From: Nitrosopumilus sp.
Lineage (GTDB): Archaea; Thermoproteota; Nitrososphaeria; Nitrososphaerales; Nitrosopumilaceae
Assembly: GCA_965218785.1 (NCBI GenBank)
Contig: OZ244650.1
Span: forward strand, 736,001 to 800,000
Direction of reading: 5' to 3'
DNA: 64,000 nt
Shown here: positions 5,656-53,032 of the stretch, one piece after another
Numbering within the stretch: the stretch's first letter is position 1
Layout: the number at the start of each line of letters is the position of its first letter
Position numbers and translations under genes: made by a program
The notes under the pieces: generated by a model
The model's input: only the letters and a program-made list of their open reading frames with translations
Databases searched by the model: none
Told to the model about the DNA's origin: nothing

Positions 5656-6107
5656 ATACTTAAAGTATCAAATTTTCTTTGCTCTGAAATTATGGATACT
5701 TTCAAGTCTTATGGGTAATTATTCCTATGAATTATTAAATTATTCTAAAATCCGAATAATTTTTTAATATAAAATATCGTTATTGTTATTATAGCCAGCT
5801 ATCTCGGTATAATTTATCAAAAACATTCGTTGATCCTTGTCACAAAAACGTCTGTAACTGGTTTTTGTTTGTTTGTTAAAGTATTACCAAGTAATGCTAT
5901 GATGGTATTTTGAAAGCCTTCTTCCTACATGCCGCCAGACTCAAAATATTTGATTTATTCCTCTAGTTCTATGTCCTTTTGAAGTTCTTTTGGTAATCCG
6001 ACCCACCATTCCTTTTGACTCACAGACATAACATCAATAACCTCGGGTTGTTAATAGATCTGTTGGTTAATTATTCACTGTAACTGTTAAAGAATATCTG
6101 ACAAAAT

Positions 6108-6605
6108 CTAGTCCTTTAGATATCTGATATCTGAGGTAGATTCGGTCTCCCTTATCTTCACAACTATGGTATCCCCCAGTTTATTGAATATTCTTTGACG
6201 TTTCTCATTTGTCAAAAACCAGCCCAAGACAACATCGATTGGAAGCAGTAATGCTTTTCCAAAACTGTTTATCATGATGCCCTTCAAATCGGCCTCTTCT
6301 CCGGAAATACTGACTGTTCTCAAATTGAGAATTTTTTTCCCAATTGTCTGACCTGTCTTGTATTCTAAAACCGTCCAATATACAAAAAATATGATGCTGG
6401 TTGGAACATACTGTATGATTTCAGCCCCAAAATCATCCTCTTTTTCAAACTCGTAATATGTAGTCCCAAACGATGCAATAGTTATTATTGTGAAAATAGC
6501 CGAAATTATGATAAAATCCACCAGCCAAGCAAGAAACCTGTCTGTCCATTTTGCTAAATGTATTCCTGATGATGTTTCAGAATCAACCATGCAATAACTG
6601 CACAT
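6108..6605 (-). CDS. RDD family membrane protein
   Basis: RFLAWLVD, GQTIGKKILNLR, RQRIFNKLGDTIVV. Confidence 0.92.
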   Translation of the reverse strand: MCSYCMVDSETSSGIHLAKWTDRFLAWLVDFIIISAIFTIITIASFGTTYYEFEKEDDFGAEIIQYVPTSIIFFVYWTVLEYKTGQTIGKKILNLRTVSISGEEADLKGIMINSFGKALLLPIDVVLGWFLTNEKRQRIFNKLGDTIVVKIRETESTSDIRYLKD

Positions 6606-6687
6606 TTCAGATTAATAAAACATGTTGATCACTTGTCAACATCATTTACATAACAGATAATTTATTTGTGACTAGCAACACAGATGC

Positions 6688-6819
6688 ATGAAGGCAAAAT
6701 TTGCAACATCCTGTAACTCCTGCGGTGATAAGATACAGCCTGGCAAGGAGATCTCAAAAAATAAGGACGAAAAATGGGTTCACAAGCACTGTGTCGAAGA
6801 TTCTGAAGGATTACCTTAG
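6688..6819 (+). CDS. Zn-binding microprotein (43 aa)
   Basis: Translated by hand: MKAKFATSCNSCGDKIQPGKEISKNKDEKWVHKHCVEDSEGLP; CxxC...HxxC; below the ORF-track cutoff. Confidence 0.8.
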   Translation: MKAKFATSCNSCGDKIQPGKEISKNKDEKWVHKHCVEDSEGLP

Positions 6820-6848
6820 AAATTAATAACAGTGCCATCCAAACAGAT

Positions 6849-7709
6849 TTGAAACTATTTTTGGTATCTATAAACCCCCTCGATGTGCTGCTTTGGACCT
6901 TTCGCAGAAATGAAAAAGACGTCGTGAATCTTTACACCGCGCTCTCCCCCCTGATGCAAATTGCCACAGGTGGCACCATGCTCAATTTTGGTTACTGGTC
7001 TTCAAAACACACGGATCCGATCTCTGCCCAAAATAACCTTTGCACGGTTTTTGGGGATTTGGCAGAATTATCCTCTAGCCGACATGCAGTTGATGTTGGA
7101 AGCGGGCTGTCATCCCCGTCAAAACTATGGAGGGATAATCATGACGATCTTGATCTGTATGATGTAAATATCAATTTCAAACAGCTGTCTTTTTCTGGAA
7201 GACAAAAAAACATCGGATTTCTAAACTCTACATCCACCAAACTCCCATTTGCCGATTCCTCAGTTGATCGTGTATTGGCATTGGAATCAGCACAACACTT
7301 CAAGCCTTTGGAGGATTTTATCTCCGAATCAAAAAGAATCCTGACTCCCGACGGATTACTTGCATTGGCAATTCCGATAACCATTGGCAATCCCTCGATT
7401 GGAAAGTTGGGACTCTTGAAATTTACCTGGTCTTCTGAACACTACAGCATGGATTATCTGCGGAATCTGATTTTATCTGCAGGGTTTTTGATATCTGATG
7501 AAAAATTAATTGGTCCGAACGTATATGATCCCCTTGCTGATTACTATATCCGAAACAGACCACAATTAAAAGAGTCAATCCTGAGGAATTATCCCAGTTA
7601 TGTTGAAAACCTCCTCTTCAAATCAATTCAAAAAATGAAAAAAGCATCACAAGAAAAAGTTATTGACTATGCGTTATTAAAATGCAGACTCGTAAAGAAC
7701 ACATCCTGA
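6849..7709 (+). CDS. Class I SAM-dependent methyltransferase (sterol/tocopherol C-methyltransferase-like)
   Basis: MLNFGYW, VDVGSG, LPFADSSVDRVLALESAQHF, RILTPDG. Confidence 0.88.
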   Translation: MKLFLVSINPLDVLLWTFRRNEKDVVNLYTALSPLMQIATGGTMLNFGYWSSKHTDPISAQNNLCTVFGDLAELSSSRHAVDVGSGLSSPSKLWRDNHDDLDLYDVNINFKQLSFSGRQKNIGFLNSTSTKLPFADSSVDRVLALESAQHFKPLEDFISESKRILTPDGLLALAIPITIGNPSIGKLGLLKFTWSSEHYSMDYLRNLILSAGFLISDEKLIGPNVYDPLADYYIRNRPQLKESILRNYPSYVENLLFKSIQKMKKASQEKVIDYALLKCRLVKNTS

Positions 7710-41821: not shown

Positions 41822-42739
41822 ATGGGCTTGCTTGAGGATCTCAAAAAGGGAAAACGCGGGGCGATTGCAAAGGCGATAACCATAATTGAAAATGATCCAC
41901 GGGAGGCAAAAAAGATACTAGGGAAGATCTTCCCGCACACTGGAAACTCCATTGTTATTGGCATTACCGGTCCTGCCGGCGCCGGAAAAAGCTCCCTTAT
42001 TGACAAAACCACCATCATTTTGAAGAAACTTGGTACAAAGCCTGCTGTCTTGGCAGTTGATCCTACCAGTCATGTTACCGGCGGTGCCATACTAGGTGAC
42101 AGGGTTCGAATGACTGATTCTACGGATTCAGGAACATACATCCGAAGTATCGCATCAAGGGGGGCTACTGGTGCAATATCTAATTCGCTGCGAAACAGCA
42201 TTCGCATCCTGGAATATTCCGGATTCAATCCGATTATTATTGAAAGTGTCGGGGCAGGACAGACTGAAATTGATATTTCAAATATTGCAGACATTACAGT
42301 GGTGGTCTTTAATCCTAATACGGGTGATAGCATACAGACGATCAAGGCAGGTCTGACGGAAATTGGAGATATTTACATTATAAACAAGAGTGACCTTGCT
42401 GGAACAAACCAACTCTTTGATGCCGTAATGAGCTTTATTGGAGATTCACAACGAAAACCTGCAATCCTCAAGACGTCTGTAAAAAAGAATACCGGAATTA
42501 CGGTATTTGCAAAAACACTCAAGGAAATGATGAAATCCAAAAATAAAACCAAAAAGGAGAGAGATCATCAGCGCCTAGAGGCAGAACTAAAGGATATTGT
42601 TTTAAATAACATCCAAAAAAAGATTGATGACATGTCTGACTCTGATAAACTATTCTCAAGGTATCTCAAAAAACTGCAGTTAAAAAGTATCAATCCGTTT
42701 GAAGCCGGAGATAAAATTACAAAATCCCTGTTAAAGTGA
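41822..42739 (+). CDS. meaB: Methylmalonyl-CoA mutase-associated GTPase
   Basis: GPAGAGKS, VDPTS...GAILGDR, ESVGAGQ, NKSD. Confidence 0.96.
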   Translation: MGLLEDLKKGKRGAIAKAITIIENDPREAKKILGKIFPHTGNSIVIGITGPAGAGKSSLIDKTTIILKKLGTKPAVLAVDPTSHVTGGAILGDRVRMTDSTDSGTYIRSIASRGATGAISNSLRNSIRILEYSGFNPIIIESVGAGQTEIDISNIADITVVVFNPNTGDSIQTIKAGLTEIGDIYIINKSDLAGTNQLFDAVMSFIGDSQRKPAILKTSVKKNTGITVFAKTLKEMMKSKNKTKKERDHQRLEAELKDIVLNNIQKKIDDMSDSDKLFSRYLKKLQLKSINPFEAGDKITKSLLK

Positions 42740-44340
42740 AAATCATGGCCGCAAAAAAATCAAAACAACCTGAAAAAAAGTTTTTTACAGATTCAAACTT
42801 TTCAGTAAAGCGCATCTATCAAAAATCCTCCAAAAAAAGACCTGCTGAGGATGCGGGAACATACCCGTTTACTAGAGGAATCCATCCTGGAATGTTTCGT
42901 GACAGGTTCTGGACCATGCGACAGTACTCCGGATTTGGAGATGCCAAACTAACTAATGGGAGATTCAAATTCATGCTTGAAAAGGGACAAACAGGTCTTA
43001 GCATGGCCTTTGATCTGCCAACACAGATAGGGTACGACTCTGATTCCCCACAGGCCGAAGGCGAGGTGGGAAAAGTCGGGGTCTCTATAACATCAATCAA
43101 GGATATGATGACTGCCTTTGATGGCATTCCACTGGGCAAGGTCAGCTCATCGATGACTATCAACTCCACTGCATCTACACTGCTTGCATATTACATCGCA
43201 GTCGGCGAATCACAGGGATTCAAAAGCGTCCAGCTTCGCGGAACAACGCAGAATGACATTCTAAAGGAGTACATTGCAAGAAACACCTACATTTATCCGC
43301 CGCAGCCATCAATGCGGTTGATCGGTGATATGATAGAGTACTGTGCAGATAAAGTCCCCTCCTGGTATCCCGTATCAATCTCAGGATACCACATGAGGGA
43401 GGCCGGCTGTACTGCAACCCAGGAAGTGGCATTCACACTGGCAAATGCCATTGCATACATTCAGACCTGCCTGGATAAGGGGCTGAAGATTGACGACTTT
43501 GCACCACGTCTGTCATTTTTCTTTTGCTGCACCATAGAATTCTTTGAAGAGGTTGCAAAGTTCAGGGTTGCAAGAAAAGTCTATGCGAAAATCCTCAAGG
43601 ACATGTTTCATGCAAAAAATCCGCGCTCATTACAATTGAAATTCCACACTCAAACCAGCGGCGAGTCGCTGACTGCACAGCAGCCTGACAACAATATCGT
43701 GCGCGTCGCAATCCAGACAATGGCCGCAGTAGCCGGCGGTACCCAGTCACTGCATACGAATTCCAGGGATGAGGCACTGGCACTTCCCACACAGGAATCT
43801 GCCAAAATTGCGCTCAGAACACAGCAGATCGTCGCCCATGAGAGTGGCATTACAAAGACTGCAGATCCGATGGCAGGCTCTTACTATCTTGAGGAATTAT
43901 CTGATCAAATCGAGGACGGCGTGTGGAAGTATCTTAAAAAAATCCAGAAAATGGGCGGTTCTGTCAGGGCAATCGAGAAGGGATTCTTCCAGTCAGAGAT
44001 AAGGCAGAATGCCTACCGTCTGAAGAAGGAAGCAGACGATGGCAAGCGGATTCTTGTCGGTGTAAACAAGTACCATGATGAGGATGAGAAACAGCCTGAC
44101 CTGCTTAGAATCGGCGGCAAGGTTGAAACCCAGCAAAGAAAGGCACTCAAGGCATTGCGCTCATCTAGGGACAAGAAGAAATGGGAAAAGGCGTTATCTG
44201 CAATGCAGGCCGTAGCTGATACTGATGAAAACCTCATGCCGTACATAGTTACTGCCGCAAAAGCGTTTGCCACCACCGGTGAAATCAGCGATACCTTCAG
44301 GGAGGTCTTTGGGGTGTATCATCCAAAGGAGGTCTTTTAA
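42736..44340 (+). CDS. Methylmalonyl-CoA mutase large subunit
   Basis: YPFTRG, WTMRQYSGFG, QNDILKEY, SISGYH, QSLHTN. Confidence 0.97.
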   Translation: MKIMAAKKSKQPEKKFFTDSNFSVKRIYQKSSKKRPAEDAGTYPFTRGIHPGMFRDRFWTMRQYSGFGDAKLTNGRFKFMLEKGQTGLSMAFDLPTQIGYDSDSPQAEGEVGKVGVSITSIKDMMTAFDGIPLGKVSSSMTINSTASTLLAYYIAVGESQGFKSVQLRGTTQNDILKEYIARNTYIYPPQPSMRLIGDMIEYCADKVPSWYPVSISGYHMREAGCTATQEVAFTLANAIAYIQTCLDKGLKIDDFAPRLSFFFCCTIEFFEEVAKFRVARKVYAKILKDMFHAKNPRSLQLKFHTQTSGESLTAQQPDNNIVRVAIQTMAAVAGGTQSLHTNSRDEALALPTQESAKIALRTQQIVAHESGITKTADPMAGSYYLEELSDQIEDGVWKYLKKIQKMGGSVRAIEKGFFQSEIRQNAYRLKKEADDGKRILVGVNKYHDEDEKQPDLLRIGGKVETQQRKALKALRSSRDKKKWEKALSAMQAVADTDENLMPYIVTAAKAFATTGEISDTFREVFGVYHPKEVF

Positions 44341-44608
44341 CTGGATACTTTTTTTATTGCTTTAGTTGGATGGATGGTTTGAGCAAATCAAGCTGTCTGT
44401 TCTCTTGAACTTGGACATACCATTACACTTTATTCCCATTCTAAATAGAATCATTCTGAATTAGCATCTTTATCAAGAGTCGATCTGACCTTTGATAACT
44501 TGACATGTCCACACCCATCAAAAACCGGCATGAAAAAACACTTCCTACAAGCTAACATAACTCTCTGCATAATATTGAATAACCATTAACTTCAACTCAA
44601 AGACAGCC

Positions 44609-45346
44609 TTGATCAGAATTAACAAAGAATCTGACATTACCATTCTCAATGCATCTGTTACTGATTTTGCAGATTCCCTGGGATACTGTGAATACAAAAT
44701 CCCTTTATCCATTGAGGGCATTAAACCGGTGCCTACTGAGGCACTGATTTCAGGTGCAAGGGCCCACCATGAGGAGGAAAAATTTGAGGCAGAACACGCA
44801 GAATTAGTGCCAGTCTCAGTTGAGCAAATTGAGGATAGGAAGGAAGACATTGAGTTTGCCAGGGAGAACATCTACTCTACTTTGATCATACCTTTTGAGT
44901 TTCCATCTGAGAACGTGTTGCTGAGACTCTCAGGGAGAATTGATAAAATCCTGCGAGTTGATGGGACTCTAATAGTCCAAGATGACAAGTTTGCAGGCAG
45001 GCCGCAAAACTATGATTCCAAGACCCAGCCATATCCGGGCCAACTGCTACAGGTTCTGGCCTATCTGAACTCTAGTTTTTCAGAAAAAAGAAGTGCAAAC
45101 CCCGATGATTTTTTTGACATGCCTCACAGCCAAAAAAAATGGAAGATTAGAATCTGCGATAGAAAGACTCGGGAGCCATACAAGGTATTCTCAGAACTAC
45201 AGGATTCATTTTCACTACATTACCTCCACACATCACTGGAAAAATTTGCCACTATCTCATTGGGTATTACAAAGCCGGAGCATCATAACAACTCAAACAA
45301 ATGTAATGCCTGTAATTTGAAATCATTTTGTGATTACAGATTATAA
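44609..45346 (+). CDS. Solo Cas4-like PD-(D/E)XK nuclease
   Basis: GYCEY (Cys1), G...H, GRIDKI...QDDK, QVLAY, C-terminal CNACNLKSFC (Cys2-4), the Cas4/AddB Fe-S staple layout. Confidence 0.82.
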   Translation: MIRINKESDITILNASVTDFADSLGYCEYKIPLSIEGIKPVPTEALISGARAHHEEEKFEAEHAELVPVSVEQIEDRKEDIEFARENIYSTLIIPFEFPSENVLLRLSGRIDKILRVDGTLIVQDDKFAGRPQNYDSKTQPYPGQLLQVLAYLNSSFSEKRSANPDDFFDMPHSQKKWKIRICDRKTREPYKVFSELQDSFSLHYLHTSLEKFATISLGITKPEHHNNSNKCNACNLKSFCDYRL

Positions 45347-45586
45347 AACACTATGATCCAACTCATCTAATGGACATGCATGGATTTTGTGTTTTCAAGA
45401 ACCGCATTATGATTGCCACATTTGTGGAATTTCAGATAACAGTTGATGATCATAATTTTGTAGAGTACAAATAACAAAATGATCCTTTCTAATAAAATTA
45501 AGAATTGGTGTGTGTATGGGATGTTTTTAATTGGTAAAAGTACTTTTGATAGCATTGTTTTAATACAATACATCAAGATTGTAAAT

Positions 45587-45793
45587 ATGAAAGGATGGTT
45601 GCCATTGCTGGCAATACCTGTAGTTATGATTGCATTATTTGTGCCCTTTGAAGAATGTCGAGATGATGAAGATAAACCCACAATTTGGAGTCAGATTGCA
45701 TGTCCGGGATGGAGTTCAGGTGATAAAGCGTGTTTGGAGATGGGTTTTATGACTATTTGTGAAACAAAATCATTATTTGAATTAATAAAATAA
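45587..45793 (+). CDS. Small membrane-anchored Cys-containing protein (68 aa)
   Basis: MKGWLPLLAIPVVMIALFVP TM segment followed by four Cys. Confidence 0.6.
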   Translation: MKGWLPLLAIPVVMIALFVPFEECRDDEDKPTIWSQIACPGWSSGDKACLEMGFMTICETKSLFELIK

Positions 45794-45905
45794 AAAAGGG
45801 TTTAACGATGTCCAACTCTTCTAATGTTTTCTCAAGGTAGAATCCATCAACAAAAATTATTTAGAACCCTAGAGTGATTGCAACAAACACACACCCCCTG
45901 AAATC

Positions 45906-46190
45906 CTATCTTAATCTCCTAAACCCCTTGATTCCTAATCTGACGAAATTATCATCAATTCCAAACCTCTCAAAGATCCGTCTCAAAAAGTAACTTCTAG
46001 CAAAAGAAACAGTGGCATAAACAAATGTAATTGCCAAGTTTGCGACAAGCGGATCTTCCTGAATCCATCCCAGTGACAGGGGTAAAATCACAATTCCCAG
46101 ACCATATCCCACCGGATATCCGCCAAATGAATTGACAAATGCTTCAGACAAACTCTTTTTGTGGGAATCAACTGCCGCCTGATTTGACAT
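45906..46190 (-). CDS. Small two-TM membrane protein (phage-like)
   Basis: SHKKSLSEAFVN...YATVSFARSYFLRRIFE resembles small phage membrane proteins; TAATG-coupled to the upstream ORF. Confidence 0.7.
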   Translation of the reverse strand: MSNQAAVDSHKKSLSEAFVNSFGGYPVGYGLGIVILPLSLGWIQEDPLVANLAITFVYATVSFARSYFLRRIFERFGIDDNFVRLGIKGFRRLR

Positions 46191-46483
46191 TATCTCATAT
46201 CCTCCATGACCTCATCTGAGAATGAATCCATTTTTGATGGGGCATCTCTATTCCTATTGAAACCGTTACTCCTCCCGTCATAACTGACATATTCCACTGC
46301 CCTCCAACTGCCATCTGAGTTGCAACACTTTTGGGAATACCTCCACACGATACACGATTCCTTGATAATCCATGCCAAATAATGCAAAACTATCAATCCC
46401 CAAGAAATTACGGGATTTACAAATTTTGACACCCTACAAAACATCCAAAACATGGCGGCGGTGATTTTTAACAGTGGAATCAT
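46190..46483 (-). CDS. Hypothetical protein
   Basis: 97 aa; start and stop both overlap neighbouring genes. Confidence 0.55.
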   Translation of the reverse strand: MIPLLKITAAMFWMFCRVSKFVNPVISWGLIVLHYLAWIIKESCIVWRYSQKCCNSDGSWRAVEYVSYDGRSNGFNRNRDAPSKMDSFSDEVMEDMR

Positions 46484-46770
46484 TGATCATAAACCTCCTC
46501 AATATTGAATCCCTGATCAAAATCAAAAGAATCTATCCTGTCTGACTCTTCGTTATGTTCTGCATTGCCCCATCTATGCTGACAGTCAATGCATTCCCAT
46601 TTCGGGTCATGATCAGTAACCATGCATCCACCCATGACGATCTCTTTTTTATCTAGCTGCTCCTTTATTGAATCCATATCCGTATACCCCCAAAAAATTT
46701 CTGCAACACTTGAACTTTTACAGTTGGGGCAGTTCAACTTTTTTTGCCCCGATACTCGTGCAAACAGCAT
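46480..46770 (-). CDS. Zn-ribbon protein
   Basis: CPNC...IFWGY...MGGC...PKWECIDC; alternative start TTG 46737 overlaps the upstream stop. Confidence 0.8.
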   Translation of the reverse strand: MLFARVSGQKKLNCPNCKSSSVAEIFWGYTDMDSIKEQLDKKEIVMGGCMVTDHDPKWECIDCQHRWGNAEHNEESDRIDSFDFDQGFNIEEVYDQ

Positions 46771-46922
46771 CCATTCTTTGATCGTTTCATCTTTTCTTCA
46801 ATGTGTGCTGGCAGTTGATCACCCTGTCTTTGAATCAGAGAATCCGCCCTTCTCTGATCTAAACCGTATAACATCTTTTGTACTGTCTGCTTAATACCTG
46901 TCCCGCTTTTACTGCAAGTCAT
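46734..46922 (-). CDS. Small hypothetical protein
   Basis: 62 aa; coupled to neighbours at both ends. Confidence 0.5.
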   Translation of the reverse strand: MTCSKSGTGIKQTVQKMLYGLDQRRADSLIQRQGDQLPAHIEEKMKRSKNGCCLHEYRGKKS

Positions 46923-47002
46923 TCAAATCTTTCCACATAAACTAGCGGTTCATCAGAATCCTCAAACTCTCGAATGATTCTAGGATACATTGCGGGTTTC
47001 AT
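46919..47002 (-). CDS. Candidate 27-aa microprotein
   Basis: MKPAMYPRIIREFEDSDEPLVYVERFE; starts 1 nt after the PIN stop; ATGA overlap with the next ORF. Confidence 0.45.
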   Translation of the reverse strand: MKPAMYPRIIREFEDSDEPLVYVERFE

Positions 47003-47003
47003 T

Positions 47004-47429
47004 TTAAATTCCCCTCACAGTTGATGGATGAAATCCGATGACTCCGATAAACTCACAGGTCTTTAGCAGCATCCTATCAAAAGTTATTAAAATGAAATTT
47101 TTTGCTTGACAGAGACTGAGAATTTTATTGTCCCCGTTATGGCATATCTGAAACTGCATACTGATATTTCTGGCATTTTCTTTTTCCTGTTTTTCAACTG
47201 TGATAGTCTCTATGCTGCGATTAAGCAGTTTTGCAACAGTTGAGATTATTTTCTGATGTGTAAAACCCCTGACTCTTTGCACCTCGTTTAATACCACATC
47301 GCAGAGGATTACTCTGATCTGTTTTCCCCTTAGACGGGTTTTGAGTTTATAGGCTATTTGCGGCTTTTCAATAATGTCTATTACTACGCATGAATCTAGT
47401 GTAATTTTTTGAATCTGTATCTGTTTCAT
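47004..47429 (-). CDS. PIN-domain (VapC-like) ribonuclease
   Basis: ITLDSCVVI, VVLNEV, GDNKIL, LITFD: four acidic catalytic positions present. Confidence 0.88.
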   Translation of the reverse strand: MKQIQIQKITLDSCVVIDIIEKPQIAYKLKTRLRGKQIRVILCDVVLNEVQRVRGFTHQKIISTVAKLLNRSIETITVEKQEKENARNISMQFQICHNGDNKILSLCQAKNFILITFDRMLLKTCEFIGVIGFHPSTVRGI

Positions 47430-47494
47430 GAATCGCCTTGATGGTGAGAATTATTATATATCATGACAATAGTAAACATACTGATCATACTGTT

Positions 47495-48232
47495 ATGTCT
47501 AAAATTCCCAATCTGCGCATCCATATTGCCCCTGTGGGATATGAGATAGATAGAATCGTACTCCCTGCAAAAAAGATGCGTGCAGACAAGGTGATCCTGC
47601 TGGTCCATGAGAACCCAAGCGAGGACAAGGCGACAAAATTCTATCAAAAGATTTCAGAGCAGCTAGAGGCACTGAACATCGAAGTTGTAATGGAGTACCA
47701 TGATAGAACCGCGTTATTTCAAATTATCAAAACCGTCAAAAATTTGATTTCGCAAGAGTCGGGGAATATAATCTCAGTTAATCTGGCATCTGGTTCCAAG
47801 GTTCAGGCAATAGGATGCATGATGGCATCAATGATGTTCAATGAGGATTCCAATGTAAATCCATTTTACGTGGAGGCAGAAGAGTATCTGGGATTTTCAG
47901 GCAAGGCAATGTCCAAGGGAATCAAGGAGATAGAATACATTCCAACATATGAGATTCAAAAGCCCCAGGAACGGCACATCCGGGCGTTGAAGATTATCGT
48001 AGATAATGATGGACGAATTTCTAAAAAAGAGATGGCAAAAAAGGCAGTGGAGCAAAAACTAATTGTAGTTAATGCTGAAAACCAGTCACAGGCCACATTT
48101 GCAAGTCTTGACAAAAACATCATCTCTGTGCTGGAGAACCAGTGGAGGTTTGTCAAAGTAAGTAAGATTGGACGGACTCGGTGGATTGAGATTACCAAAG
48201 AAGGAAGACACGCAGTGGAATTTCTAATCTAG
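47495..48232 (+). CDS. CARF-like (DUF6293/HFX_2341-type) sensor-HTH transcriptional regulator
   Basis: IHIAPVGYEIDRIVLP, ADKVILL, VNLASGSK, C-terminal wHTH (ISKKEMA...GRTRWIEITKEG). Confidence 0.85.
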   Translation: MSKIPNLRIHIAPVGYEIDRIVLPAKKMRADKVILLVHENPSEDKATKFYQKISEQLEALNIEVVMEYHDRTALFQIIKTVKNLISQESGNIISVNLASGSKVQAIGCMMASMMFNEDSNVNPFYVEAEEYLGFSGKAMSKGIKEIEYIPTYEIQKPQERHIRALKIIVDNDGRISKKEMAKKAVEQKLIVVNAENQSQATFASLDKNIISVLENQWRFVKVSKIGRTRWIEITKEGRHAVEFLI

Positions 48233-48888
48233 TTTGAGTGCATCGTGCTAAATTCGCGGGGTATCTGATGCGTGAGACGTACTTGGTTCTTACTGCCTTG
48301 CATCTCTTATATTTTCTGATGTTTTGCATCTTTGTTTTTTTGTATGTGTCACATGGTGCAGTTGAATCTACAAACTGACTGGTTCAAAAATAACCTTGCT
48401 CTGATCATTGTTGCATCTGCCGTCTTTTGGCATTAACTGATCTAGTCATCCTAAACGTACCACTCTGATACTCACTTTTTTGATATCTCCAGTCTCTTGC
48501 CCTCATGAGGAATCTGTTATACCATTGGTTGTTTTGGTACGTCTTGCAGAATTGGGATATTTTTGATGGCTTTTTTTTGTCCCAAGACTCCCTGTTTTAT
48601 TCCCCGATGAAATTAAAAAACAGACTAATGACATCTGGTTCTCTGTCCCTGTAGTTATACTGCCAACGAATCAAATCTGATACAATAGGCTCATTTATCA
48701 AAAATGCCACCGGATTTAATCCTGAGAAGATCCAATTATGTCCTATAACATGTTACAGAGCCAATAAATAAAACCCATAAAACAACTAAATCGTAGAACT
48801 TTGAATGCTGATAAAGAAATGACTGATAATCCGTCCAAAATCGACTGTTATCTCTTACCGCTAATTCATAAAACCGGGGCTTACACAG

Positions 48889-49287
48889 ATGAAGATTGAT
48901 CATATTGCAATTGCAGTAAATGATGTGGAGGAATCTGCCAAAGTATACCGGCAGGCACTCGGTGTTGAGAGTGTGGAATTTGAGACAGTTGAATCAGAGG
49001 GGGTCAAAGTTGCAATCATTCATTTGGAAAACTGCCGCGTTGAACTAATGCAGCCAACAAATGATGCTAGTCCCATCAAAAAATTTCTGGACAAAAGAGG
49101 TCAGGGACTGCATCACATGGCATTGGAGACTGATGACATCAAAGGTGAGGTGGAAAGAATGGAGGGATGTGGCATTCAATTCTTGGGGCAGATCAGGCCC
49201 GGTTCTGCGGGAACCAAAGTTACTTTTATCCATCCAAAGTCCCTTCATGGTGTGCTAGCAGAACTCTGTTCACACTCTAAAGAATAA
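48889..49287 (+). CDS. mce: Methylmalonyl-CoA epimerase
   Basis: IDHIAIAV, GLHHMAL, FIHPKSLHGVLAEL. Confidence 0.96.
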   Translation: MKIDHIAIAVNDVEESAKVYRQALGVESVEFETVESEGVKVAIIHLENCRVELMQPTNDASPIKKFLDKRGQGLHHMALETDDIKGEVERMEGCGIQFLGQIRPGSAGTKVTFIHPKSLHGVLAELCSHSKE

Positions 49288-49391
49288 CACTCTTGTTTAC
49301 ATGCAATAGCATGCTGTTGACTGCAGAAGATTATCTTCTTTGATCGTCAATCCACTTTGCTGAAACATCTGCAGGTTTTAACTGGGAATAA

Positions 49392-49949
49392 TCATTCCAT
49401 CATCTTTAGCGTGTCTGATGCCGTAATTATTCCCACAACCTTGGATTTTTTTGAAACAAGAATGCATTTTGAATATCTAATTAATGGGACAAGGACGTTT
49501 GCCGGAGTATCAAAATCCACGATTGGCGGAATGGGATCCATCGTATCTGCCAGTTGGGCTTTTTTGAGATCGGCTTCTCCCAAATCTGCAAGATGTCTTA
49601 CAATCCCGTCCTCAGATACGACCCCCACAACTTCTGAATTGTTAAAAACGGGAATCTGACTGATTGACAACTGGTGCATCTTTTTGATTGCATCATGAAG
49701 CGTGTTGGTTGGTTTTAACTTTATGATATCCTTGCTACAAAAATCCCCTGCCCTGTGTGATGATGACTGGCCCTCTAGTTTTGCAAGATTCTCAAAAATC
49801 TTCTTTGCAGTATCATAACTTGGCTTACTCCTTCCGGATTCTATCTGGTTGATCATCGACGTGCTGACTCCAGTCATTGCAGCTAGTTTTTTCTGTGTAA
49901 TTCCGATTTTTTGCCGTATCTGCTTGATTGAATCGATCCTCGGTAACAT
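49392..49949 (-). CDS. XRE-HTH plus CBS-domain regulator
   Basis: ITQKKLAAMTGVS...IESGRSKP; tandem CBS domains. Confidence 0.93.
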   Translation of the reverse strand: MLPRIDSIKQIRQKIGITQKKLAAMTGVSTSMINQIESGRSKPSYDTAKKIFENLAKLEGQSSSHRAGDFCSKDIIKLKPTNTLHDAIKKMHQLSISQIPVFNNSEVVGVVSEDGIVRHLADLGEADLKKAQLADTMDPIPPIVDFDTPANVLVPLIRYSKCILVSKKSKVVGIITASDTLKMME

Positions 49950-49951
49950 CT

Positions 49952-50344
49952 TTACAGGCCTCCGCCGGAAACTTTTCCCAACTCTATCTCATATCCGCTG
50001 GGATCCACAATATACACCGATTTTGATTTCTCCCAGTCTATGGGACCTCCATACAGTACCTCTACTGCCTGCTCCCTGCATCTTGTCATTATTTCATCAA
50101 AATTTGTAACGTTGAATCCAAAGTGGGCTATTCCGCCCTCTGGTGACATATCTGGAACCTCATACATGCATAGTTTAATTGAATCGTTGCCGATAATCAC
50201 TGATGGAACATCTGCCTTGTTTGGATTTTCCTCCTGTCTTATCTCAAAACCAAAAAGATTCCTGTAAAACCCCACACTTTGTTCCAGATTCTTGACTTTC
50301 ATATTTACGTGATCAATTAATACTGCATTGAGGAATTTTCCCAT
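49952..50344 (-). CDS. VOC/glyoxalase family protein
   Basis: IDHVNMKV...FY...HFGF...DPSGYEIEL. Confidence 0.92.
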   Translation of the reverse strand: MGKFLNAVLIDHVNMKVKNLEQSVGFYRNLFGFEIRQEENPNKADVPSVIIGNDSIKLCMYEVPDMSPEGGIAHFGFNVTNFDEIMTRCREQAVEVLYGGPIDWEKSKSVYIVDPSGYEIELGKVSGGGL

Positions 50345-50374
50345 GTCCTGTTGTAGATGTTGTAGATATTTAAT

Positions 50375-53032
50375 TTACCGCTTCTTTTTAGGTTGCTCGA
50401 TTGCCGCCTGTGCGGCTGCAACGATTGCAATTGGGATTCTATGAGGTGACGCACTCACATAACTCAGATTCACACCGTGGCAGAATTTTATGGAATTTGG
50501 ATCCCCCCCATGTTCGCCACAGATGCCGATCTCCATGTCTGGTCTGGCTTTGCGTCCGTGCTCAATTCCTATCTTCATTAAACTGCCTACACCGTTTACA
50601 TCAATTGACTGGAACGGATTTCTTTCAAGCAGTTCCTTTTCCATGTATTCAGGAAGGAACTTTCCCTCTACATCCTCCCTGCTAAAACTAAACGTTCCCT
50701 GTGTCAGGTCATTTGTCCCGAAACTAAAGAATTCCGCAGTACTTACAAGCTCATCTGCAGTCAGTGCGGCCCTTACCACCTCAATCATGGTTCCAAAGTT
50801 GATCTTTAGCTTTGTTTTGTGTTTTGCCTCCATCTCTTTTTTGATGGAATCATAAATCTTTTTGATGTGATTTAATTCTTCAATACTGCTGATTTGTGGA
50901 ATCATGATTTGAGGATGCGCTTTTACTTTTTTCTTTGATAGCTCCACTAGTGCCTCAAAAACTGCCCGAATCTGCATCTCATAAATCTCCGGATGCGTGA
51001 TGCCGACTCTTACCCCCCTGTGACCCATCATCGGGTTTATCTCTGCAAGCTCTCTTGCCCTTTTTAGAACGACTCTTGCCTTTTTGATCTGCACTACTGA
51101 CTTTTTTAGTTCCATCCTGTGTATCTTTTCGGCTAGTTCCTCGGGGTTTGGCAGGAATTCATGCAATGGTGGATCCAGCAGTCTAATTGTAACCTCGTAT
51201 CCCTCCATTGCCTTTAGAATCTGGATAAAATCACTTTTTTGCAGCTGGCCCAGCTTTTTTAGAACCTTGATCCTCGCGTCGATGTTTTCTGCCATTATCA
51301 TATCTACAAACAGGCCAATCCTGTCTTTCCCATTGAACATTCTTTCGGTTCTGCACAATCCGATTCCCTGACCGCCGAAACTTCTTGCCAGTCTTGCGCC
51401 TTCAGGCGTGTCTGCATTTGCCCTGATGCCTATCTTCTTTGCCATTTGCGCCCATTTCAAAATCTGTCTAAAGTCTGATGTTATTTTTGGCTCTATTGTT
51501 GGGATGTTCCCGATGTATACAATGCCGGAACTTCCGTCAATGGTCATGGCATCCCCCTCTAGTAATGTTTTTCCGTTTATACTGCATTGCCTGTCTTCAT
51601 AATTTATTTTCAAATCCGCACATCCGACAATACACGGTTTTCCCATTCCCCTGGCCACTACTGCGGCATGGGATGTCTTGCCTCCCCTGCTAGTCAGAAT
51701 TCCCACTGATTCAAAAAACGCCGGAACGTCTTCTGGTTTTGTTTCCTCCCTGATTAAGATGACTTTGGCGCCATTTTCCCCCATTGCAGCTGCCCTCTTT
51801 ACATCAAACACTGCTACCCCGCTTGCGGCTCCAGGTGATGCTGCGATTCCCTCTGCCAACTGCTCGTATTTACTGACTTCTTTAGGATCCATTCTCCTAT
51901 GTAGCAACTGCTCGAGTTGTTCTGCATGGAGTCTGGTTAGCGCCTTGTTTTTATCAATCAGCCTTTCTTTGACCATGTCTACTGACGTCTTTACCATGGC
52001 TATCGCATTCATCTTTGCATTTCTTGTCTGAAGCAGGTAGAACCTGCCCTGCTCGACTGTAAATTCAATATCCTGCGGCTCCCTGTAATGCTTTTCGAGT
52101 ATTTCACAGGTTTTTGCCAGCTGCCTGTATGATTCTGGAAGATCCTTTTTCAACTGGTCTACCTGCTTTCCTGTTCTTACACCTGCCACGACGTCTTCGC
52201 CTTGTGCATTGATTAGATATTCCCCGTAGATCTGGCGTGTACCGTCTCCTGGATTTCTCGTAAATACGACGCCAGTCGCACTGTCATCTCCCATGTTTCC
52301 AAATACCATCGAGACGATATTTACTGCTGTACCATCAGCTATATCCTTTGTAATGTTGTTCTTCTCCCTGTATACTACTGACCTCTCACCCGTCCAACTT
52401 CCAAAGACTGCCTTTATTGCAAGTTCAACCTGTTCGGTGGGATTTACCGGGAATTTTCTTCCGGCATGCCTGACACAAATTCGTTTGTACTGCTCTACTA
52501 TTTTTTTCAGGGAATCCTCACTCAAATCACTGTCTAGCGTTACACGCTGCTTTTTCTTTGCAGCACCCAAGACCTCGTCGAATTTCTCGTCATCTACTCC
52601 AAAAACCACCTTGCCAAAAAGTTGAATGAACCTCCTGTACGAGTCCCATGCAAATCTTGGATTGCCGCTTTTCTCGGCCAGACCCAGTACCGTCTGATCG
52701 TTTAGTCCCAGATTCAGAATGGTATCCATCATTCCAGGCATGGAAACTGCCGCCCCGGATCTGACTGATACGAGCAGCGGATTTGACTTTGAATTCCATC
52801 TCTTGCCTGTTCTCTTTTCTATCTTTGCAATATTTTTTTTAACATCTGCCATCAAAGTCCTTGGTAGTTTTTTGTTGTTTTCATAATATTTTTTGCATAC
52901 GTTAGTTGTGATTGTAAATCCCGGCGGTACTGGCAGCTTTAGTCTTGTCATTTCACAAAGACCTGCCCCCTTTCCACCCAGAAGCTTCTTGTTTTTGCCA
53001 TCTCCCTGGTCATAAAAGTAAACTTGTTTCAT
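50375..53032 (-). CDS. ppdK: Pyruvate, phosphate dikinase
   Basis: LGGKGAGL, SVRSGA, GKTSHAAV, GTNDLTQ, GICGEHGG. Confidence 0.98.
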   Translation of the reverse strand: MKQVYFYDQGDGKNKKLLGGKGAGLCEMTRLKLPVPPGFTITTNVCKKYYENNKKLPRTLMADVKKNIAKIEKRTGKRWNSKSNPLLVSVRSGAAVSMPGMMDTILNLGLNDQTVLGLAEKSGNPRFAWDSYRRFIQLFGKVVFGVDDEKFDEVLGAAKKKQRVTLDSDLSEDSLKKIVEQYKRICVRHAGRKFPVNPTEQVELAIKAVFGSWTGERSVVYREKNNITKDIADGTAVNIVSMVFGNMGDDSATGVVFTRNPGDGTRQIYGEYLINAQGEDVVAGVRTGKQVDQLKKDLPESYRQLAKTCEILEKHYREPQDIEFTVEQGRFYLLQTRNAKMNAIAMVKTSVDMVKERLIDKNKALTRLHAEQLEQLLHRRMDPKEVSKYEQLAEGIAASPGAASGVAVFDVKRAAAMGENGAKVILIREETKPEDVPAFFESVGILTSRGGKTSHAAVVARGMGKPCIVGCADLKINYEDRQCSINGKTLLEGDAMTIDGSSGIVYIGNIPTIEPKITSDFRQILKWAQMAKKIGIRANADTPEGARLARSFGGQGIGLCRTERMFNGKDRIGLFVDMIMAENIDARIKVLKKLGQLQKSDFIQILKAMEGYEVTIRLLDPPLHEFLPNPEELAEKIHRMELKKSVVQIKKARVVLKRARELAEINPMMGHRGVRVGITHPEIYEMQIRAVFEALVELSKKKVKAHPQIMIPQISSIEELNHIKKIYDSIKKEMEAKHKTKLKINFGTMIEVVRAALTADELVSTAEFFSFGTNDLTQGTFSFSREDVEGKFLPEYMEKELLERNPFQSIDVNGVGSLMKIGIEHGRKARPDMEIGICGEHGGDPNSIKFCHGVNLSYVSASPHRIPIAIVAAAQAAIEQPKKKR

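Follow-up and report, generated by a model that had tools for sequence, protein, structure and literature searches.

A Csa3-like CARF regulator, its predicted private operator and a recurrent PIN and micropeptide cassette in an island of a Nitrosopumilus chromosome

To our knowledge, CARF domains have been described almost exclusively as receptors for the cyclic oligoadenylates made by Cas10. The Csa3a protein of Sulfolobus recognises palindromes in promoters and is a direct activator of herA and nurA, according to an excerpt of the paper that describes it (PMC5587795). HFX_2341 of Haloferax mediterranei is presented, in an excerpt of its report (PMC11434293), as a global regulator with vertical inheritance whose over-expression represses cas genes; it is unlinked to CRISPR loci in its genome and has homologues in CRISPR-less species. 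Here we describe a locus that encodes a regulator of this kind in a 64,000-nucleotide (nt) stretch of Nitrosopumilus sp. DNA (the window: positions 736,001 to 800,000 of contig OZ244650.1, assembly GCA_965218785.1; all plain coordinates below are those of the window). An island (44341..48888) fills the space between the stop codon of the methylmalonyl-CoA mutase large-subunit gene and the start codon of the methylmalonyl-CoA epimerase gene, and carries a CARF and winged-helix regulator, a divergent minus-strand operon headed by a PIN-domain RNase gene, and a solo Cas4-like nuclease gene. Family searches agree with this much of the gene list in a preliminary description made from the sequence alone, which regarded the island as a candidate for an undescribed defence or stress unit. 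That word holds in part: the regulator family already has Pfam models and an experimental paper on HFX_2341, of which we cite an excerpt (PMC11434293), and the thaumarchaeal module, with its operator, cassette and micropeptide, was not found in the searched literature, supplementary files lying outside the search. The comparisons below suggest that regulator and cassette form a recurrent module controlled from one compact divergent promoter.

The regulator gene lies on the plus strand at 47495..48232 and encodes 245 amino acids (aa); a longer open reading frame (ORF) runs from 47438, and comparison of conserved ATG codons makes ATG 47495, not TTG 47438, the most likely start. Its product matches the Pfam families HFX_2341_N (E=9.1e-35; 120.2 bits against a cut-off of 30) and DUF6293_C (E=1.1e-18; 68 bits against 27), passes the Csa3_N cut-off with 27.4 bits against 27, and matches CARF_Card1 (E=1.4e-3) and the PADLOC model 'CARF3--CARF' (E=1.2e-69). 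An AlphaFold model with a predicted local distance difference test score (pLDDT) of 93.4 places the helices and hairpin of a winged helix at residues 159-244. The top Foldseek matches of this model in the PDB were the Sis0811 ring nuclease, Csa3 in its apo and cyclic tetra-adenylate (cA4)-bound forms, Csm6 and Can2 (E ~1e-8), with a Foldseek probability of 1.00 to Csa3, Csm6 and Can2, and the alignments to Csa3 and Sis0811 span about the whole length of the regulator (249-315 alignment columns). Independently, the sequence profile matches Can2, Card1 and Csm6 in the PDB. Residues H10, P13, G15, E17, D19, R20, N96 and G100 are invariant or nearly so in 32 sequences, and the most conserved parts are the loops after beta1 and beta4, the latter being the 'VNxASGSK' loop with N96 and G100; by analogy with CARF structures these loops would form the ligand pocket. 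By sequence families and predicted fold the protein thus belongs with the Csa3-like CARF and winged-helix proteins of the HFX_2341/DUF6293 family, in agreement with the CARF-like HTH regulator of the preliminary description. PF19810, the Pfam domain of this regulator, occurs in 77 of 151 genomes of the family Nitrosopumilaceae and in 19 of its 27 genera, with up to 4 copies per genome (counts that include G000 and the unpublished genomes G391 and G403), and the regulator is present in 11 of 24 genomes of the same genus. For comparisons of neighbourhoods we used this 151-genome sample and the best 80 of 249 relatives by regulator sequence, with 4-kb flanks; these 80 closest loci are all from Nitrosopumilaceae and were chosen regardless of their neighbours, and both sets are free of selection by cassette content. 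Cultured or enriched strains of Nitrosopumilus, Nitrosarchaeum and Nitrosotalea are among the carriers of the regulator.

With the regulator starting at ATG 47495, the start codons of the PIN and regulator genes are only 65 nt apart, and the space between them follows a constant plan: from the PIN ATG, ~19-24 nt, the TATA-like element AATTATTATATA, 8 nt, a predicted operator, 1-2 nt and the regulator ATG. The TATA-like element (47449..47460), in the shared AT-rich divergent promoter, is conserved in 13 aligned intergenic regions and in the consensus of 78 distinct loci, and by what is general for archaeal promoters it would serve as a TATA box. The predicted operator is 25 nt long (47469..47493, plus strand; window copy ATAGTAAACATACTGATCATACTGT) and ends 1 nt before the regulator ATG. 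Its family consensus, derived from 78 distinct sites, is ATAGTATGCATACT-ATA-CATACTAT, that is, a 12-nt perfect palindrome with a third half-site. A 25-nt position weight matrix (PWM) built from 12 family sites found the operator at the regulator start in 79 of the 80 loci, a recovery that is in close relatives partly by construction and to that extent a reservation about the reading given below, most of the 80 loci lying outside the training set. Only 5 further sites score >18 in 612,138 bases, and the 2-Mb genome of the window has only two such sites: its own operator, which is the best (28.8), and a site before nurA (19.9); the next scores 16.7. Where extra operator copies were examined, they precede extra micropeptide genes, a PIN gene or an RNase H-like exonuclease gene. 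The last of these, an RNase H-superfamily exonuclease-like family of 182-211 aa ('c22') beside the regulator, carries a separate operator copy at the gene start in three loci (L018:10944, L019:10971 and L023:7628). In locus L047 an insertion has split the PIN gene from the regulator and a copy of the operator was retained on both sides, and in another genome (L080:6441-7354, with L046) a pair of PIN and DUF7220 genes keeps the operator, the only PF19810 match of the genome adjoining rad50 at a distance of ~188 kb, a natural arrangement 'in trans'.

We infer that the 25-nt element is the operator of the winged helix. Going by archaeal promoter architecture, the operator would overlap the transcription start of the regulator itself, a placement that suggests autorepression, and as seen from the PIN operon it would lie upstream of the TATA element. 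The preliminary description had coupled the regulator to the PIN operon, and the conserved shared promoter and operator point the same way. A wider regulon based on the 14-nt operator core (at most 1 mismatch, five complete relatives) was considered and rejected, because the core sites away from regulator and micropeptide genes are all inside coding sequences, for example in a superoxide-dismutase-like gene, and have full-PWM scores of at most 11.4.

The first gene of the operon (47004..47429, minus strand) encodes a PIN-domain RNase of 141 aa that matches PF01850 (E=6e-9; 37 bits against a cut-off of 23.6); D12 is kept in at least 90% of 18 homologues and E49, D100 and D118 are invariant. The sole PDB match of its profile is MJ1533 (E=0.041). 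Directly after it comes a conserved gene for an acidic micropeptide (46919..47002, minus strand), overlooked in the preliminary description and found by tblastx conservation and ORF listing. It starts 1 nt after the PIN stop codon and encodes 27 aa from ATG 47002, MKPA-MYPRIIREFEDSDEPLVYVERFE, or 23 aa from ATG 46990, MYPRIIREFEDSDEPLVYVERFE. Members of the micropeptide family are acidic, 21-27 aa long and share a YPRIIREF... motif, of which P, R, I, R, E and F are invariant in 23 aligned copies. Variation at the three codon positions is 0.07/0.03/0.41, and because it is concentrated at third positions we regard the micropeptide gene as protein-coding and under purifying selection. In loci that lack PIN, the micropeptide gene stands directly opposite the regulator, often with an N-terminal extension; since this extension resembles the N-terminus of PIN, it suggests that PIN was lost there by deletion. 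A 42-aa variant led to 28 protein clusters, of which the named ones are all 'hypothetical' and none has a Pfam domain; the window copy has no Pfam match either. The micropeptide would be the most constant output of this regulator subfamily.

Further along the operon, all on the minus strand, are genes for a Zn-ribbon protein (46480..46770, 96 aa), for the hydrophobic protein 'o97' (46190..46483, 97 aa) and, last, for a small DUF7220 protein (45906..46190, 94 aa; PF23858, E=6.9e-18). The o97 gene overlaps both neighbours, with its start the stop of the Zn-ribbon gene and with its stop the start of DUF7220. The four conserved cysteines of the Zn-ribbon protein (C14, C17, C60 and C63) are kept in 25 distinct homologues, its Pfam matches are all sub-threshold, and the ESM Atlas leads to unnamed Zn-ribbon clusters. 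Hydropathy peaks cover residues 1-19 and 22-40 of o97, which has no family match and whose homologues hold the same position in relatives, and residues 25-43 and 46-64 of DUF7220. The latter also matches PHROG 4276 (E=2.9e-11) and has weak homologues in 8 phage records, 3 annotated as transmembrane-helix proteins and 5 as hypothetical. Of six island proteins, five had no NCBIfam match. A count of six ORFs for the operon, as first proposed, does not stand: the 62-aa ORF at 46734..46922 (minus strand), which has no family match, is probably no gene, and it is doubtful that the two overlapping 104-aa ORFs (45367-45793) are real genes; none of the three has a homologue in any locus examined (jackhmmer and tblastx for the 104-aa ORFs).

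The solo Cas4-like gene (44609..45346, plus strand) is convergent with the PIN operon and encodes a nuclease of the PD-(D/E)XK type (245 aa). It matches PDDEXK_1 (E=5.6e-7) and the PADLOC Cas4 model (E=4.1e-5), and reaches 14.1 bits against Pfam Cas_Cas4, below the cut-off of 22.7. C27, D112, D125/D126-K127, Q148..Y152, C232, C235 and C241 are kept in at least 90% of 17 distinct homologues. Because the acidic residues of PIN and the nuclease motifs and four cysteines of the Cas4-like protein are conserved, both enzymes look active.

If the genes of the island had come together by random accretion, they would not be expected to recur as a unit elsewhere, a point raised in the preliminary description. 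They do recur, in the 151 genomes and in the 80 loci. Full-length PIN homologues with at least 38% identity directly adjoin a PF19810 match on the opposite strand in 16 of 17 cases, more distant PINs (identity at most 34%) being mostly unlinked to the regulator, and 25 of 28 strong micropeptide matches are within 1 kb of a PF19810 match. For DUF7220 this holds within 6 kb for 10 of 18 matches, and for the Cas4-like gene within 3 kb for 6 of 24, in five genera. In the 80-locus set the micropeptide was counted in 30 loci, DUF7220 in 25, an RNase J-like beta-CASP gene in 22, PIN in 20, the Zn-ribbon gene in 18, the Cas4-like gene in 11 and o97 in 7. Gene order is kept as well: several genomes (loci L115 and L117) have micropeptide, Zn-ribbon, o97, DUF7220, Cas4-like and beta-CASP genes in this order on one strand, three genomes have the Cas4-like gene directly after the micropeptide gene, and locus L075, from another genus, repeats the gene order of the window almost exactly at a different chromosomal site. 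Among the first 13 relatives' loci, none was near the mutase or epimerase gene. From this comparison of sequences we consider the cassette genes to be a recurrent module and not a random accretion. The Cas4-like nuclease, suggested earlier as a possible part of the same unit, recurs with it and appears to be a facultative member.

Two other neighbours came up in these comparisons. A family of 70-148 aa with repeated IWGK motifs and no Pfam match ('c13') lies inside the cassette in 7 of the 80 loci, for example at L054:15186-15632, L023:5898-6290 and L002:1529-1848, and is absent from the window. Loci L057-L065 belong to a second family of the phylum and have HFX_2341-type regulators ~25-30% identical; their neighbourhood differs yet is conserved (clusters c16, c6 and c5, sometimes a beta-CASP gene), and these loci have no micropeptide motif and, at a PWM threshold of 13, gave no operator match.

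Other neighbours of the regulator are repair genes. We mapped 46 loci, a set biased by the picking of L071-L084 for known PIN, micropeptide or Cas4-like matches and by the omission of L057-L069 (second family or weak matches), and in these maps the regulator adjoins NurA/HerA/Mre11/Rad50 genes in 9/46 loci, a UvrD-PD-(D/E)XK helicase-nuclease gene in 8/46 and the RNase J-like gene in 7/46. The window's genome has its nurA-herA-mre11-rad50 operon elsewhere (C1:1566854-1573198), and the second-best operator match of the genome mentioned above lies 145 nt upstream of nurA (C1:1566709-1566733); a relative of the same genus has an operator site at -150 from nurA with a score of 26.0. The neighbourhoods point to DNA-break repair at least as much as to defence.

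The explanation we favour is that the CARF and winged-helix factor would bind a private 25-nt operator between the shared TATA element and its own start and so regulate itself, and that the same 65-nt divergent promoter would drive an effector operon of PIN, micropeptide, Zn-ribbon, o97 and DUF7220 genes. Ligand binding to the CARF domain would act as the switch, and the Cas4-like nuclease, as a facultative member of the neighbourhood, would here be transcribed from its own promoter. The whole would be a damage or infection alarm of the Csa3a type, in which a small-molecule-gated switch induces nucleases and small membrane proteins; it would have a link to the NurA-HerA-Mre11-Rad50 operon for break repair and need no CRISPR-Cas. 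We are rather confident of the proposed regulatory architecture, for which the comparative evidence is gene linkage, operator conservation, folds, catalytic residues and the coding status of the micropeptide. Architecture and alarm function taken together stand at an even chance in our judgement, as DNA binding, sign of regulation, ligand and trigger enter here by inference.

Several observations weigh against this explanation. As many as 37 of the 80 regulator loci have none of the cassette genes counted above, and because of these loci we conclude that the regulator has a life of its own outside the cassette. A nucleotide ligand for the CARF domain is unsupported, because no known synthase of cyclic oligonucleotides, c-di-AMP, c-di-GMP or cAMP (CYTH type) was found: searches of the genome gave no Cas10, DAC, GGDEF or CYTH enzyme, and the only SMODS-like match was the CCA-adding enzyme. 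This goes for the 'nucleotide-signal-controlled' module of the preliminary description as well. In the 80-locus set Rad50 is nearby in only 4 loci and the helicase-nuclease in 2. The site before nurA was present in 2 of the 7 nurA upstream regions examined, both in the same genus, where shared descent could explain it, and the parallel with Csa3a that the two nurA sites offer is for this reason only suggestive. The Cas4-like gene has no operator-like site upstream, the best PWM score in 42000-51000 outside the regulator promoter being 8.0, and this convergent gene need not be co-regulated in this genome. Lastly, the haloarchaeal homologue HFX_2341 mainly affects nutrient-transport genes, as stated in the excerpt of its report (PMC11434293).

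The main rival, which is the reading of the preliminary description, is a dedicated abortive-infection defence, in which the CARF domain would sense an infection-derived signal and release a toxic PIN together with membrane-disrupting small proteins. CARF, PIN and Cas4 are common building blocks of defence systems. The regulator matches PADLOC CARF models, its spread is patchy (the 77/151 and 11/24 genomes given above, with up to 4 copies per genome), cargo and chromosomal site both vary, this copy sits in a variable hotspot (see below), and phages and one archaeal virus carry homologues of DUF7220. The patchiness, the multiple copies in some genomes, the changing cargo and the phage homologues fit a defence role equally well. 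Against it, no complete known system is present: among the PADLOC models only single-gene models were matched, by the regulator (CARF) and by the Cas4-like gene, with no full component set at the model level and no match for 7 of the 9 ORFs. The genome has no known signal synthase that we could find, and searches of the whole genome found no cas1, no Cas10 palm domain and no CRISPR-like array; together with an integrase scan of the island, this bears out the earlier remark that cas1/cas2, a CRISPR array and an integrase are missing. (Two perfect tandem repeats without spacers surfaced in the CRISPR scan, 8 x 78 nt at C1:58635-59260 and 6 x 48 nt at C1:382627-382900, the 48-nt repeats being rich in GTCGAC palindromes.) Moreover, the regulator is fused to a DNA-binding and not to an effector domain, so that the response would be slow and transcriptional, its neighbours are repair genes and not recognised defence genes, and PIN is absent in 60 of the 80 regulator loci. 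We regard a dedicated defence system as somewhat unlikely.

A second alternative is a three-part unit resembling a toxin-antitoxin system, with PIN as a VapC-type toxin, the micropeptide as a minimal antitoxin, and the CARF and winged-helix protein taking over the DNA binding and autoregulation of VapB. In 13 loci with an intact PIN gene the micropeptide follows it at 1-15 nt, the PIN protein matches 'putative TA toxin, PIN family' (TIGR00305) below the cut-off (25.8 against 29.15 bits), and the peptide has two invariant arginines and an acidic tail. A complex prediction for PIN with the 23-residue micropeptide gave a score of 0.00, with controls unfolded and a length outside calibration, and speaks neither for nor against. 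The two genes occur independently, however (micropeptide 30/80, PIN 20/80), there are loci with only one of them, and one genome has PIN beside the regulator and no micropeptide match at E<=0.01 anywhere. The order is toxin first, the regulator is divergent and not co-transcribed, and the micropeptide is under purifying selection in PIN-less loci too. Because PIN and micropeptide appear to be inherited independently, a classical toxin-antitoxin pair is unlikely, and we hold even the three-part form to be improbable.

The two other alternatives concern the chromosomal site. The mutase gene (42736-44340, plus strand) and the epimerase gene (48889-49287, plus strand) flank the island to the left and right, and the 4.5-kb separation noted earlier is a precise insertion, DNA homology breaking at 44340 and 48887: in relatives, mutase homology stops at 44338-44352 (9 loci) and epimerase homology begins at 48887-48890 (12 loci). 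A single 9119-nt contig of a public run, taken from a second study, covers 43800-48924 and differs at 11 letters; contigs of another public run extend across both junctions. Since island and junctions are represented in public contigs of two studies, the island is genuine and no assembly artefact. In run X1, 46500-48200 is broken into many short contigs with variant letters and the flanks are single long contigs, a pattern that may reflect strain diversity in the PIN and regulator region inside a single sample.

Of 24 genomes of the same genus, 19 had mutase and epimerase on one contig and 2 had them on different contigs; in 3, one or both were not found. In 11 of the 19 the two genes are adjacent (gap of at most 9 nt), and in the other 8 a gap of 720-3630 nt lies between them; among the other families of the order, 5 of 6 assessable genomes have them adjacent. 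These counts go with the adjacency that the preliminary description gave for Nitrosopumilus maritimus (Nmar_0954/0953), and the possibility it raised that the same genes separate the pair in most relatives is not what we see, as no homologue of any island gene was found in the 8 filled same-genus gaps. The junction is a variable hotspot, because the filled gaps carry unrelated low-GC cargo (loci L026-L033 and L036-L039; GC 0.28-0.34). This cargo includes a methyltransferase-like protein of 272-280 aa (below the Pfam cut-off), a CopG-like protein of 174-193 aa, a Cys-rich 67-aa protein, a histidine kinase and a CBS protein. In a further Nitrosopumilus record (L092:3555-7820) the same gap holds a regulator of 82% identity, without PIN or micropeptide, followed by an IS110-family transposase gene (5862-6977) and IS5-like fragments.

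In the island, searches found no tRNA, Rfam family or flanking direct repeat, and no integrase, transposase, att-like direct repeat or terminal inverted repeat. Its GC is 0.34-0.44 against 0.406 in the genome. Three stretches matched nothing by tblastx or blastn, neither in any locus nor in the rest of the genome: spacer A (44341-44608); the AT-rich spacer B between the convergent gene ends (45347..45905; GC 0.34), which has no family match; and spacer C (48233..48888), 656 nt without a conserved ORF from the regulator to the epimerase and without an Rfam match. The closest relative's module (L085) shares with the window only 46361-48233, its homology ending at 48233.

A regulator that is an ordinary global transcription factor like HFX_2341, with incidental hotspot cargo for neighbours, would go with the unrelated cargo at the junction in 8 of 19 same-genus genomes, with the 37 of 80 loci that lack all cassette genes, and with the report, cited here from an excerpt (PMC11434293), that HFX_2341 is a vertically inherited global regulator. 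What argues against it is that high-scoring operator sites are almost confined to the module, the 14-mer core matches elsewhere in the five complete genomes being intragenic with PWM scores of at most 11.4, that the linkage of PIN (16/17) and micropeptide (25/28) is far above chance, and that the same gene order stands at a different site in another genus (L075). We see little probability in a global factor with chance neighbours. That the island is a decayed integrated mobile element (a provirus, casposon-like element or IS-borne cargo) with Cas4, PIN and small membrane genes is very improbable: the IS110 transposase and IS5-like fragments beside the regulator in the same gap of L092, the Cas4 homologues reported in thaumarchaeal casposons (excerpt of PMC6563490), the phage occurrence of DUF7220 and the short shared stretch (46361-48233) of the closest relative would fit it, and against these stand the missing integrase, transposase, tRNA and repeats, a GC content near that of the genome, and the module's syntenic positions beside rad50 in four genera.

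The locus matters since it places a Csa3-like CARF regulator, widespread in an abundant and ecologically important archaeal family, in a genome in which neither CRISPR-Cas nor a known signal synthase was found. The comparisons also yield parts that can be put to the test, namely the predicted 25-nt operator, the compact bidirectional promoter, a defined effector cassette and a strongly conserved micropeptide without known family. If ligand and trigger were found, they would reveal what CRISPR-independent CARF sensors listen to, and whether the coupling of sensing to the repair of DNA breaks in Csa3a is older than CRISPR or persists without it. Should the regulator turn out to be no more than an autoregulated repressor of the PIN cassette, the locus would be a tidy but ordinary accessory module. 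As a tentative and bolder idea, which we put forward with low confidence, CRISPR-less ammonia-oxidising archaea may keep a CARF pathway of their own, in which a Csa3-like sensor of a small molecule not made by Cas10 would switch on, through a private operator, the micropeptide, PIN, small membrane proteins and in some species NurA-HerA-Mre11-Rad50, as an SOS-like or antiviral alarm with the micropeptide as its most conserved output.

The PIN and micropeptide pair has in common with VapBC a small PIN with the conserved acidic set and a tightly coupled tiny downstream ORF, and differs from it in lacking an upstream DNA-binding antitoxin, PIN being first after the promoter and the regulator being divergent and CARF-bearing. 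The nuclease shares with solo Cas4-family nucleases the RecB-type motifs, the four-Cys cluster and PADLOC Cas4 matches; unlike Cas4 proper, it is found in a genome without cas1/cas2 and is linked to a CARF regulator in a minority of genomes. Among CARF proteins with a helix-turn-helix (HTH) domain, the Sis0811/Crn1-type ring nucleases provide the top structural match (7pq3, E=1.5e-8) and have the same CARF and HTH layout, but ring-nuclease activity requires a cyclic oligoadenylate, and searches of the window's genome gave no synthase for it. Csa3a of Sulfolobus and Saccharolobus has the same two-domain layout and fold (Foldseek E ~2e-8 to 2wte, 6wxq and 6w11) at ~11% sequence identity. A regulator of the window's type is often beside nurA-herA-mre11-rad50, and the predicted operator precedes nurA in two genomes, which recalls the Csa3a targets. 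The predicted targets here are the PIN, micropeptide and membrane-protein cassette and not cas genes, and the setting differs, the window's genome being without CRISPR-Cas and without a Cas10 to make cA4. With HFX_2341 the regulator shares both Pfam families, each above its cut-off; in contrast to it, the thaumarchaeal clade is patchy, sometimes multi-copy and site-shifting, with an apparently private operator and a dedicated divergent cassette.

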